A stretch of DNA of 64,000 bases from Octopus vulgaris (lineage: Eukaryota), in assembly GCA_951406725.2 (NCBI GenBank), contig OX597816.1:21638001-21702000 (forward strand), in the 5' to 3' direction. A program made the translations under genes and the position numbers. Each line of letters begins with the position of its first letter. Positions within the stretch are counted from its first letter, which is position 1. The notes beneath the pieces are model-generated. The model was not told the DNA's origin. It worked only from the letters and a program-made list of their open reading frames with translations, and made no database searches. This document shows, one piece after another, positions 24,005 to 55,029 of the stretch.

Positions 24005-24317
24005 TCTTTCCTACTCAAGGCACAAGGCTAGGAATTTTTTGGGGAAAGGGACAAGTCAATTAGATCGATCCCCAGTACGCAACTGGTACTTAACTGATCG
24101 ACCTCGAAAGGATGAAAGAAAAAGTCGACCTCGGCGGAATTTGAACTCAGAACGTAGCGGCAGACGAAATACCTATTTCTTTACTACCCACAAGGGGCTA
24201 AACACAAAGAGGACAAACAAGGACAGACAAACAGATTAAGTCGATTATATCGACCCCAGTGCGTAACTGGTACTTACTTAATCGACCCCGAAAGGATGAA
24301 AGGCAAAGTCGACCTCA
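24005..24317 (-). mobile_element. SINE family B dimer (tail-1 unit joined to a tail-2 unit)
   Basis: Junction on the minus strand reads AAAGAAATA|GGTATTTCGTCTG at about 24174. Confidence 0.85.
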
Positions 24318-39452: not shown

Positions 39453-39681
39453 GGCGGCGAGCTGGCAGAAACGTTAGCACGCCGGGCGAAATGCTTAGTG
39501 GTATTTCGTCTGCCGCTACGTTCTGAGTTCAAATTCCGCCGAGGTCGACTTTGCCTTTCATCCTTTCGGGGTCGATAAATAAAGTACCAGTTTCGCACTG
39601 GGGTCGATGTAATCGACTTAATCCCTTTGTCTGTCCTTGTTTGTCCCCTCTATGTTTAGCCCCTTGTGGGTAGCAAAGAAA
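39453..39681 (+). mobile_element. SINE family B (tail-1), full length, 18-bp TSD
   Basis: TATATAATAATTGC(T/C)CAG at 39432-39449 and 39682-39699. Confidence 0.92.
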
Positions 39682-39939
39682 TATATAATAATTGCCCAGG
39701 CCAATGGGTTGCAAATCGCAATAGAATATAACAAAACTTGACGTCATTACCATATCGGAAAAGACCCTTTCAACTGTACTTCACAGGGCATAATCTTAAT
39801 ATTCTAAAATCATGTTAACATTCGAAAACCAAATTAAAACTAACTCAAACAAGTATAATTCTACACGGAAGTCAAAGCTCGCAGAAATGGAGCAGAGAAA
39901 ACTGAAACATGCTGTATCAAAAAACAAAAAACTTACCGA

Positions 39940-43755: not shown

Positions 43756-44028
43756 TTGCGTATGGGTTTAAAGAATATTAGCGTATGTGTACATTGGGAA
43801 TATTTCACTGGAAGTGCAATTGTGAGTTTAGATATTTGTAAGTGTATCAAGCGTATGTTTAATATTACATTAATATTTATTGTTATTAACATGCATGCAT
43901 GTATATTTATGTTAATGTACAAAAGACTTGGGTGCTTGCGCTTCTGTTATTAGATACAAGTGTAGAAGCATCAACGTTGCGTTTGTTGTTTCATTTATAT
44001 TTCATAAGTTATACATATTAACGTGTTT

Positions 44029-44330
44029 TATTTCTTTATTACCCACTAGGGGCGACACAGAGGGGACACCACAATACATGGGACATAGAACATTATAATT
44101 AAATTTATGAAGAATGAATTATTACATGAAAATAATGATAATATGAAAGCAATGCTAAAGGCCCCATCCGTTAGCATCACTTACCTCTCCTTTGGTTTTC
44201 ACCGTCACTTGAATGTTCATTCCCAATACGAATACCTTCCATATCCATTCTTACTCCGAAATACTCCTCCATATTTTCCACGAATTCATCGCTCATTCTT
44301 GTGTCTTTCACCTCCCAATTCTCCCTTTCA
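44029..44330 (-). mobile_element. 5'-truncated copy of the ORF1-only non-LTR element, 18-bp TSD
   Basis: Matches about 54207-54510. TSD ATACATATTAACGTGTTT at 44011-44028 and 44331-44348. Confidence 0.9.
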
Positions 44331-44992
44331 ATACATATTAACGTGTTTGAGAATATATGTGTGCGTGTGCCTGCTTGTTAAAAGTGAGATTGCCATCACG
44401 TGCTCGAGTCTATTCATGTTGGTTATATTACAGCGTTAATCTCAACGAATTCAAAGCAAGATGCCACATTTCCTATACGAACAATTTAGAAACTAATACG
44501 AATTTCAGACAGAAGGTAAGTGTGAAGAAGATAATGACAGAGGGGTTTAGAAAGAAGAGAGAATGAATTAACTAGGTGAAATGATAATAGGTGGAAATAA
44601 TTAGAGTAAGTGATAATTTAGAGTAAGAAATATAAGAGATGAAAGGAATGTTTAATAATTGCTGAAGAAGAGAAAGATATGGACATCAATATTAGTAAAC
44701 AAAGATAGACGTTATTAGAAGTATGGGAATAAAAACACTACGGTTATGAATGCAGGCTGTTGATTTGGTATTGAAAGGAAGAAAGCCCTTTCAGTATTCG
44801 ATATTTAACAAGAAAAAGGAAGTTAATTATGAATTAAAAGGACATCAATTTACTTTGAAGTAAATTTATATGTGTTCAGTGATTCTGTAGAAAATACTGC
44901 ATCTTTCATCTTTCGGTCACATTTTTCATCACAAAGCCTCCTCACTTATACAATAATTAAAATACATGTGACTGACTATGATGTCACCGCAA

Positions 44993-46627: not shown

Positions 46628-46840
46628 TATTTCTTTATTACCCACAACGGGCTAAACACAGAGGGGACAAACAAGGACAGATATAGGTATTAAGTCGATT
46701 ACATCGACCCCAGTGCGCAACTGGTACTTAATTTATCGACCCCGAAAGGATAAAAGGCAAAGTCGACCTCGGCGGAATTTGAACTCAGAGCGTAGCGACA
46801 GACGAAATACCGGCGTGCTAACGTTTCTGCCAGCTCGCCG
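46628..46840 (-). mobile_element. SINE family B (tail-1), 17-bp TSD
   Basis: CGATACATAAATATACC at 46611-46627 and 46841-46857. Confidence 0.92.
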
Positions 46841-49577: not shown

Positions 49578-50112
49578 GGCGCCGTGCTGGCAGAAACGTT
49601 AGCACGTCGGGCGAAATGCGTAGCCGTATTTCGTCTGCCGTTACGGTCTGAGTTCAAATTCCGCCGGGGTCGACTTTGCCTTTCATCCTTTCGGGGTCGA
49701 TTAAATAAATACAAGTTACGCACTGGGGTCGATAAAATCGACTTAATCCGTTTGTCTGTCCTCTCTGTGTTTAGCCCCTTGTGGGCAGTAAAGAAATAGG
49801 TATTTCGTCTGTCGTTACGTTCTGAGTTTCAATTCCGCCGAGGTTGACTTTAGCTGTCATCCTTTTGGGGATCGTTAAATAAAGTACCAGTTGCGTACTG
49901 GAGTCGATCTAATCAACTGGCCCCCTCCTCAAAAATTTACGCACTGGGATTGATGTAATCAACTTCATCTTTTCCCCCAAATTTGAGGCCTTGTGCTTCC
50001 AGTGGAAAGAATTTTTGCTAAAGGCGGAGAACCTGGAGACACATTAGCACACCGAGCACAAGGCTTAGGAGTATTTTGTCCCTCTTTGCATTCTGTGTTC
50101 AAATTTCGCCGA
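49578..50112 (+). mobile_element. SINE family B multimer
   Basis: Full tail-1 unit, junction at 49798/49799, tail-2 unit, an extra tail, and a further head fragment. Confidence 0.85.
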
Positions 50113-52966: not shown

Positions 52967-53518
52967 TTGGGTTGTCCGGAAAGTTCATGCCGATTTTTAA
53001 AGTAAAGAAAAAGGTCATTACATTTTTAATCAACCAAATATGAACCATTTTGTTGCACAATGCGTCTCCATCTTTCCTTTAACTTGAAAATACCCTTTTC
53101 CTAGAATTGAGGTGGTTTCCTGGCAAAGAAATCATCAAGGTATCTTTTTACGTCATTCAAGGATTTGAAATTTTTGCCCTTATGTCTATTCTACAGAGAC
53201 CTGAATAAGTGGAAATCCGAAGGAGCAATATCTGGTGAATATGGAGGGTGGGGTAACACATCCAAGCCAAGCTGCAGCAATTTTTGTCTGGTTCTCAAAG
53301 CATCAAGTGCCAAAAATTAACTTTCTTATCTTACATTTTAAAGGGTTACAGAATTAACACAGGTCATAGGAACACAAATCTTCTTCCACGAAAAGATAGC
53401 TTAAACTGTGCTCTAAATGAAGGTGTAGACAAATCCTATTTTATGGATTCAACCATTTTCTAATATAAGTCGAAAGATAAGCTACTATAAATTGGCACGA
53501 ACCTTTCGGACAACCCAA
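52967..53518 (-). mobile_element. Internally deleted mariner element with both TIRs
   Basis: TIRs TTGGGTTGTCCGGAAAGTTCATGCC and GGCACGAACCTTTCGGACAACCCAA plus TA. Minus strand 53028-53300 reads LGLDVLPHPPYSPDIAPSDFHLFRSL...GIFKLKERWRRIVQQNGSY. Confidence 0.92.
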
Positions 53519-53609
53519 TAGAAGACGCGAATGTCGAAAGTCGAATAACCAGTGTCATAAACCAATTAGAATGAATATTAAATGTATACACCAAAGAATA
53601 TTATTTAGC

Positions 53610-54510
53610 AGGGCTGGAGAGGCGTAACAGTGGAGCTGAACGTACAGGCAGAGACCGAGGTACTGGTGGACCTGGCGGAAAGCATCAGATTGGGAGACGT
53701 GATCATGAGAGTGTGGGTGGAGGGCAGGGCTCCACGTTGTTACAAGTGTAGCCTGAGGGGTCACATAAGAGCCTTCTGCCCTCCCCCAGGGAAAGAAATG
53801 GATTCCGAAACACAGAGAGAGAAGCAGAAACCAGAGGAGAAGGAGACAGTAGAAGAGGAAGAGAATACACAGAAATGGAAGGAAGCTGGAAATAAGAGGA
53901 AGAGAAGAATGCGTGGAAAAGAAAATAATATGGAACACCAATCTACCCCAAAACCACCCACACCCTCTGAGTCCCACCCTATCCATGCAGACAGTGAACC
54001 CCCAGCTCCCCCCCAACAAGAAAACAAAAGAAAAAAAATAATGCACACAGACAAGAGATTGAATTCGATATCAGGCCGTACATTTGTACTATGACTGAAC
54101 AGAAAGAAGTTAAAAGTCTAATGGAAGAGTATAAATGGTATGAAGTTGGTGAGACTAGGTATGCTGTGATTGAAAAGAAGAACATAGGTGAGTTTATGGT
54201 GAGGTGTGAAAGGGAGAATTGGGAGGTGAAAGATATAAGAATGAGCGATGAATTCGTGGAAAATATGGATGAGTATTTCGGAGTAAGAATGGATATGGAA
54301 TTTATTCGTATTGGCAAAGAACATTCAAGGGACGATGAAAAACAAAGGACAGGTAAGTGATGCTGACGGATGGGGCCGTTGGTATCGCTTTCATTTTATC
54401 ATTTTTTCGTTTAACAATTCATTTTTCATAAATTTTAATTATAAATGTTCTATGTCCCCATGTCTTTTGGTGTCCACTTCTGTGTCGCCCCTAGTGGGTA
54501 ATAAAGAAAT
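53610..54510 (+). mobile_element. 5'-truncated ORF1-only non-LTR retroelement, 20-bp TSD
   Basis: TSD ACCAAAGAATATTATTTAGC at 53590-53609 and 54511-54530. A gag-like ORF runs into a ~150-nt 3' UTR ending AATAAAGAAAT. Confidence 0.88.
53630..54360 (+). pseudogene. Gag-like ORF1 fragment with a CCHC zinc knuckle, probably one frameshift
   Basis: RVWVEGRAPRCYKCSLRGHIRAFCP fits CX2CX4HX4C. ORFs 53630-54094 and 54091-54360 can be joined by a frameshift in the A-run near 54031-54038. Confidence 0.75.
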
Positions 54511-55029
54511 ACCAAAGAATATTATTTAGCCTCAGCGGTAATAAATTCAGGACAAGTCGCAAACACAAGACATACACCATTTATGTACTGATGTGCGTCC
54601 TCTTGGTACATTATCCCGTGAAAAGCATTTAACATAGAAAGAGTACAAGTTGCCTCTAGTTGCTTCAAAACTGTGGTGTCAGTCACCGAGTTTGCATAGA
54701 TCACAACGTATGGCAGCGTATGAAAATTAACCCCTCAAACCGCCGGACGTAAGATGAAAAAGGTATGCAGATATATAGATATATACATTATTTGTAATCT
54801 ATATTATAAGATAAGCCAAGTTTCTCTCGACATCCGACTGTACTTTTGCTCCTCACACGCTATCTTCAGATCAAGATGAATTTCAATTTTACATATATCG
54901 ATAAAATAGGAAAAGAATTAAATTATACAATTATCCCTGCCAGTTGTGGTTAGACTTTATGATTTGAAATATACATCATCGCCTTTAAATAAAAATAAAA
55001 GGTTTTAAACAGTTTTTATCTGATATCTT

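Follow-up and report, generated by a model that had tools for sequence, protein, structure and literature searches.

The two inserts at 53610-54510 (+ strand) and 44029-44330 (− strand) of the window, the 64,000-nucleotide stretch of the Octopus vulgaris genome analyzed here, are most probably 5′-truncated copies of a 1.75-kb non-LTR family that encodes ORF1 only and is copied in trans by the enzymes of an L1/Tx1-group LINE; we place the probability of this reading at roughly 0.86. Several of its components were observed directly: the structure of the copies, their target-site duplications (TSDs), an empty site, the lack of an ORF2, selection on the core of ORF1, homology to LINE ORF1s, identity of the 3′ tail with that of an autonomous family, and independent insertion. 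The use of ORF2p in trans is the conditional component, and it is the tail identity between ORF1-only and autonomous families that argues for it.

Structure of the window copies

The larger insert is the 3′ 901 bp of a 1.73- to 1.75-kb unit, as judged by genomic identity, and belongs to the family that we call A. An earlier note on this DNA had described a perfect 20-bp TSD around it, and the repeat is indeed exact (53590-53609 on the 5′ side and 54511-54530 on the 3′ side, + strand). The empty allele of this site is represented by one contig of run X15 (organism B; depth 6.4, one of four runs), which connects 53589 to 54511 and is missing 921 bases; the 20 letters at the joint fit both sides and thus represent a single target copy. 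The second copy, shorter (3′ 302 bp) and more diverged, has its own exact 18-bp TSD, with the 3′ side at 44011-44028 and the 5′ side at 44331-44348 (− strand), and shares its 3′ end with the larger copy at 90.5% identity over 306 columns, again as the note had it. The larger copy is 93-98% identical to 41 other top genomic matches and 1.7% from its nearest unit, and the second copy differs by 6% from the unit nearest to it and by 9.7% from the larger one. Both are ordinary dispersed insertions outside Helitrons.

The knuckle-bearing open frame of the larger copy (53609-54094, + strand) has lost its start codon to the truncation and comprises the end of the second predicted RRM, a CCHC knuckle at 53738-53779 and a charged proline-rich stretch, parts that were assigned from the frame listing, an alignment with autonomous ORF1, and the model and fold search of the family core. 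The note was right about the knuckle and about the lack of room for an ORF2 downstream of either window frame, but not about the distance of some 150 nt that it gave between the knuckle frame and the terminus. The CCHC frame ends 417 nt short of the 3′ terminus, and the frame that finishes about 150 nt short of it is a different, distal one (53998-54360, + strand). The 3′ UTR that follows (54361-54510, + strand) has no poly(A).

A Mariner-like fragment lies upstream of the larger insert (about 53027-53520), and at C5 and C15 a related A subfamily has inserted into the same Mariner-like repeat. The window also contains repeat pairs in opposite orientation, one 96% alike (31769-32101/63307-63639) and one 90% alike (20606-20920/46120-46434).

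Full-length units and genome-wide census

In full units of the family, a leader of about 180 nt is followed by a single ORF and then by a short UTR and the fixed tail. An RT domain upstream in the full-length unit would have spoken against an ORF1-only element; the leader holds none, and none was seen on either side of full-length units as part of the same element. At the loci read, the 5′ neighbors of full units are host DNA, another unit or a Helitron arm. A genome search with the window copy gave 771 candidates, 40 of which were scored in a set that favors long copies. The ORF end runs into the 3′ UTR in 99 of the first 100 listed of 366 matches, the remaining one being a chance match, and among the first 30 of 190 knuckle motifs the tail is reached within 1 kb in all 30 and an ORF2 match within 1.5 kb in none. 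The ORF-to-UTR junction is thus common to hundreds of copies, and the claim of a family, not a one-off deletion, stands. These searches gave best or first matches only, and with 100 of the 366 ORF ends and 30 of the 190 knuckles read, a rare autonomous element with an A-type ORF1 could still exist somewhere in the genome. A single A copy was flagged as carrying ORF2, and this proved to be a false motif match.

TSDs of 11 to 20 bp were scored by script at 6 of 30 loci, and none of 8 bp or more was found at the dispersed full-length units C1x and C3x or at several array ends. The 3′ end is fixed and the 5′ truncation variable across copies. None of 51 window-type ends has a long A run, all of them ending in the short fixed tail, and A runs are present in a few other units. 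The TSDs, the 5′ truncation, the fixed 3′ end and the empty allele together bear out target-primed reverse transcription, to which the insertions had been attributed from the start. Substitution counts revealed a one-strand A-to-G excess in 4 of 85 other units (L181 at G000:C3:135.10 Mb, L042/L043, L047 and L044) and no such excess in the window copies; the strongest unit has 57 A-to-G against 5 T-to-C changes, a count to which subfamily differences contribute. The excess likely reflects RNA editing fixed by reverse transcription, and as the mark of an RNA stage it supports the retroelement reading.

Two other regions deserve mention. Six family ORF ends lie about 3.6 kb apart at G000:C1:216.93-216.95 Mb, a longer repeat unit than elsewhere, and diverged ORF1 frames with 27-68% identity to the studied families are clustered at L176/L177 (G000:C11:75.467-75.487 Mb), which suggests lineages beyond the four studied.

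The ORF1 protein

The distal frame is joined to ORF1, leaving the ORF open to the distal stop (454 to 472 aa), in only 10 of the 64 full-length units; in most others, shifts within C or A runs, a number of them perhaps introduced by the assembly, bring the ORF to a stop at about 365 to 385 aa. A 205-aa core represented by 17 natural copies was modeled with a pLDDT of 89. The best Foldseek matches of the model are tandem-RRM proteins (E 5e-5; low TM-scores), the VIA-align comparison of the first domain with the La RRM gave a Z of 8.5 and an rmsd of 2.6 over 81 residues, and that of the second domain pointed to RRM/ACT-type folds. L1ORF1p is absent from the fold matches listed, which is no evidence against kinship. 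Across the 17 aligned cores only zf-CCHC recurs in Pfam (16 of 17); the two window frames gave no curated Pfam match, and a weak Ephrin match on the distal frame, below the cut-off, was dismissed. ORF1 is predicted from the model to carry two RRM folds along with the one CCHC knuckle and to bind RNA, in agreement with the RNA-binding protein proposed earlier.

The core aligns end to end with LINE ORF1s and is 34% identical to an autonomous LINE ORF1 over 215 aa (E 5e-43); among the autonomous ORF1s seen, the nearest have about 35-41% identity. Since a host-gene match would have pointed to a processed pseudogene, such matches were looked for as well, and no named host gene matching the ORF was found in the database protein search. 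The five database proteins that do match cover 18-28% of the query, the closest of them being labeled Octopus vulgaris hypothetical proteins. A profile search of a 1.84-billion-protein set returned 1,470 unnamed matches without context, which do not show the range of the family.

The comparison of dN/dS among copies that the earlier note had recommended was made on a 184-codon core, in six ORF1-only and two autonomous comparisons; for ORF1 of AUTO1 against that of AUTO2, saturation left no ratio to be had. Two rows of the ORF tree (C1a_14529 and C4y_18931), chimeric or unrelated frames, were disregarded. The dN/dS values range from 0.07 to 0.13 in the ORF1-only lineages (0.13 and 0.08 within A, 0.13 for A-B, 0.12 for B-B2, 0.10 for C-C2 and 0.07 for D-D2), are 0.09 and 0.04 within the autonomous family, and stay near 0.1 even across near-saturated synonymous distances. 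The ORF1 core is therefore under purifying selection in four ORF1-only lineages. The distal frame is without clear protein-level selection: over the last 105 codons, dN/dS is 0.48 for B-B2 (CI 0.21-1.02) and 1.27 for A-B (CI 0.6-3.0), where no purifying selection is seen and the low dS points to a recently exchanged 3′ part. Selection is likewise not seen when the two window copies, which are short, are compared alone.

Autonomous partners and shared tails

AUTO1, a 5.26-kb autonomous element, has an ORF1 and an open 1,132-aa ORF2 in two copies read. Homologues of its ORF2 carry RVT_1 (RT), Exo_endo_phos (APE) and zf-RVT, and among solved structures human L1 ORF2p is the closest to it (E 4e-48, versus 1.6e-26 for R2). 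A search for an RT-encoding element with the same last nucleotides as the larger window copy led to a second autonomous family, AUTO2, whose ORF2 is 73% identical to that of AUTO1 and whose last 32 nt are exactly those of the window copy (54479-54510). In the same way, the ORF1-only family C and AUTO1 have an exact tail match of 30 nt, whereas crosswise matches, including that of AUTO1 with the window tail, extend over 11 nt. On this sequence evidence the window's subfamily likely obtains its RT from AUTO2. The assignment is not certain, as both full-length AUTO2 copies read are broken by frameshifts, and a different family with the same tail may be the one that is active as donor.

The partner belongs to the L1 group by its domains and PDB matches, and it has two ORFs, with APE, RT and a C-terminal zinc finger in ORF2, as in the Tx1 clade. 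No named Tx1 or L1 reference is among the 120 listed ORF2 homologues. The missing poly(A) and the target preference point, tentatively, to a Tx1-like partner.

Abundant SINEs in the window, which we take to be of the octopus tRNA/CORE type, have tails 81-83% like that of family A (39642-39683 and 49757-49798, + strand; 24174-24215 and 46628-46669, − strand). Judging from these tails, they may be mobilized by the same LINE group. These SINEs are also stacked on one another, at an inner position that is fixed.

Chains and their Helitron-like target

Most long copies are arranged head to tail in chains of up to ten or more units, in which families A, B, C, D and AUTO1 are mixed. Most chains lie inside a repeat of about 1 kb with Helitron-type ends, of which at least 307 copies are empty. 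In 18 empty copies parsed from 41 loci, the end is CTAG followed by T in 17 and the start is A followed by TC in 16, and a subterminal hairpin folds; by these ends, the hairpin and the A/T insertion, the repeat is a non-autonomous Helitron-like element. The arrays are located mid-contig, for example at 37.7 of 84.7 Mb on C14 and at 32.3 of 118.9 Mb on C8.

Hand counts of the ends differ by subfamily. Among the first 100 of 153 AUTO1/C-type ends, 53 adjoin the main Helitron site, 9 a second site, 23 the 5′ end of another member and 15 other DNA; the array-type A subfamily has 107 ends, and of the first 100 listed, 12 are at the site and at least 83 more are at a family member. The window's subfamily has 51 ends, at least 4 of which are AUTO2, with none at the main site, 15 stacked and 36 dispersed.

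The first 290 bases of the Helitron right arm (L091, L084 and L100) carry the decayed remains of an inner part of a related ORF1 (E 8e-11), and both preferred insertion sites are near the edges of this piece. An inverted partial unit within a chain (L050:3141-5816) resembles a product of twin priming.

Origin of the copies and the chains

Target-primed reverse transcription of LINEs depends on an APE-RT protein that binds the 3′ end of its RNA. In the mechanism that we propose, the ORF1p of family A would coat its own RNA in cis, and a complete LINE, which for the window's subfamily may be AUTO2, would supply ORF2p with its endonuclease and RT in trans by recognizing the common 3′ tail. Chains likely grow as one target-primed insertion after another lands on the 5′ end of a resident copy or immediately upstream of it, with stacking that would often start from the fixed site in the Helitron-like repeat and could be helped by pairing of the new cDNA with the resident 5′ end. 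DNA-level duplication likely makes a partial contribution.

Serial insertion is favored by the repetition of local flanking sequence at inner junctions. In two chains outside Helitrons, upstream flank recurs at inner junctions beside exact 3′ ends (about 36, 47 and 64 nt in C14x and about 26 nt in C4y), and in L158 two stacked copies have 15 bp of duplicated Helitron site between them. These repeats, and the failure to find a single TSD around the whole chains checked, argue against the formation of a chain in one event, in which the RT would start on the autonomous RNA, finish it and jump to the 3′ end of another. Room for such template jumping is nevertheless left by several 5′-truncated inner units that are joined to the next 3′ end without duplication and by the position of the autonomous copy, which is 3′-most in every one of the 13 Helitron chains read in which autonomous and ORF1-only copies occur together; we consider it unlikely. 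Still less probable is the propagation of the chains as Helitron cargo, whereby one old insertion was copied by rolling circle and expanded as a central tandem repeat. Many chains do have almost identical left junctions, the sequence at some inner junctions is met again on several contigs, and the C8a chain has a repeating junction pattern with neighbors 0.1-0.3% apart; near-identical neighbors of this kind indicate some DNA-level duplication. Yet of 153 locus pairs, 50 combine LINE cargo less than 1% apart with Helitron arms 3.5-8.4% apart, arm and cargo distances are uncorrelated (rho 0.06), filled and empty arms are intermixed on a weakly resolved tree (18 changes versus a shuffled mean of 18.3), and the left junctions of Helitron chains vary widely. 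The mismatch in divergence, the mixed arms and the varying left junctions point to independent insertions into the Helitrons. Moreover, only 26 of 64 units have their nearest neighbor within the same chain, and the window copies are outside any Helitron. As the main route, Helitron cargo is largely refuted.

The window inserts by themselves, being truncated, one without a start codon, and showing no selection in short window-only comparisons, could pass for a one-off deleted or recent fragment of an autonomous LINE whose ORF has no selected function. We regard this as very improbable, given the shared ORF-to-UTR junction, the distance of the nearest autonomous ORF1s seen (about 35-41% identical, with no autonomous family seen whose ORF1 is >90% identical to that of family A) and the low core dN/dS across deep divergences. 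TSDs and 5′ truncation are also typical of retrocopies, and with five database proteins matching the ORF one could think of processed pseudogenes of a host zinc-knuckle gene, the least probable of the readings considered: all five are unnamed hypothetical octopus proteins that match only in part, the core aligns over its whole length with LINE ORF1s, and the copies end in a LINE tail instead of poly(A). Our preferred reading of an ORF1-only family copied in trans can be extended, tentatively and with considerable doubt, to a cooperative community rather than simple parasitism. Ancient ORF1-only lineages would then be satellites of Tx1-like LINEs that adopt the tail of the active partner and build HeT-A-like chains, their ORF1 would aid targeting or packaging, and the 5′ end of each element would serve as the landing site for the next.

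Significance and comparison with known systems

HAL1 elements are mostly old and so give a poor answer to the question of why ORF1 is kept in cis when ORF2p acts in trans. In the octopus, four ORF1-only lineages have copies that are young and nearly identical, candidate partners are intact, and the tails match, which makes the need for ORF1 in cis, the specificity of the tail and the choice of partner accessible to assays. A LINE that prefers a given sequence, lands at a harmless site and has natural non-autonomous cargo is also of relevance to tools for targeted insertion. For annotation, it matters that ORFs of the family have been called as hypothetical host genes.

ORF1-only derivatives of LINEs are a known class that, in the available text of PMC5786205, includes HeT-A, HAL1 and Ag-Sponge. 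Family A has three features of this class: it encodes ORF1 without RT or endonuclease, its ORF is homologous to autonomous ORF1, and it has amplified as a family of its own (at least 366 ORF ends) with the marks of target-primed reverse transcription, namely TSDs, 5′ truncation, a fixed 3′ end and an empty site. Ag-Sponge, of the CR1 clade, falls under the same class definition, that of "ORF1-present bipartite non-autonomous LINEs," but the derivatives listed in that part of the source come from Jockey, L1 and CR1 and, unlike the octopus family, none is Tx1-like or molluscan (PMC5786205). The repeat annotation of O. vulgaris reports 13 recently active L1-Tx1 families, and ORF1-only elements are not mentioned in the portion available (PMC13282606). 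We found no description of the present combination in the published literature, although subscription journals, Repbase and supplementary repeat libraries (e.g., that of PMC13282606) may already list the families.

HAL1 (half-L1) of mammals is an L1-derived element with ORF1 only, whose coding capacity was long kept, according to the accessible parts of the reports (PMC5753468, PMC3627910, PMC13756887). As far as those parts go, HAL1 and the octopus family have in common the presence of ORF1 alone, L1-group descent, retention of ORF1 coding, and the implied use of ORF1p in cis and ORF2p in trans. Mammalian HAL1/L1-type ORF1p has a coiled coil, an RRM and a CTD and no knuckle, and HAL1 ends in poly(A), whereas the octopus ORF1 has two predicted RRMs and a CCHC knuckle, the octopus family ends in a conserved tail, and the octopus has at least four deep lineages side by side, arranged in chains. 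The family had been called HAL1-like in the earlier note; the term holds for the ORF1-only mode of working but membership in HAL1 does not, because ORF1 is of another type, the element has another 3′ end, and its partner seems to be Tx1-like.

HeT-A, a gag-only element, forms head-to-tail arrays with RT-encoding partners at Drosophila telomeres, as outlined in the available part of PMC5537684. On that outline, the octopus family resembles it in encoding only Gag/ORF1 and in its one-direction head-to-tail arrays mixed with RT-encoding partners. It differs in that its arrays are interstitial and on many contigs, its partner is L1/Tx1-like and not Jockey, its 3′ UTR is short, and no host function is known for it. 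Elements of the Tx1 clade that target DNA transposons have been described, in the passages available, as Tx1 in Tx1D, Tx1-Mar and SINEU in Mariner-N4_AMi, and Tx1-9_AMi in Harbinger (PMC4494074). Within the limits of those passages, the octopus elements resemble them in preferring a site within a non-autonomous DNA transposon, in inserting serially and in tandem around a TSD, and in having non-autonomous partners with a weaker site preference. They differ in their Helitron-like target, Helitrons not being mentioned in those passages of PMC4494074, in partners that encode ORF1, and in chains that exceed ten units.
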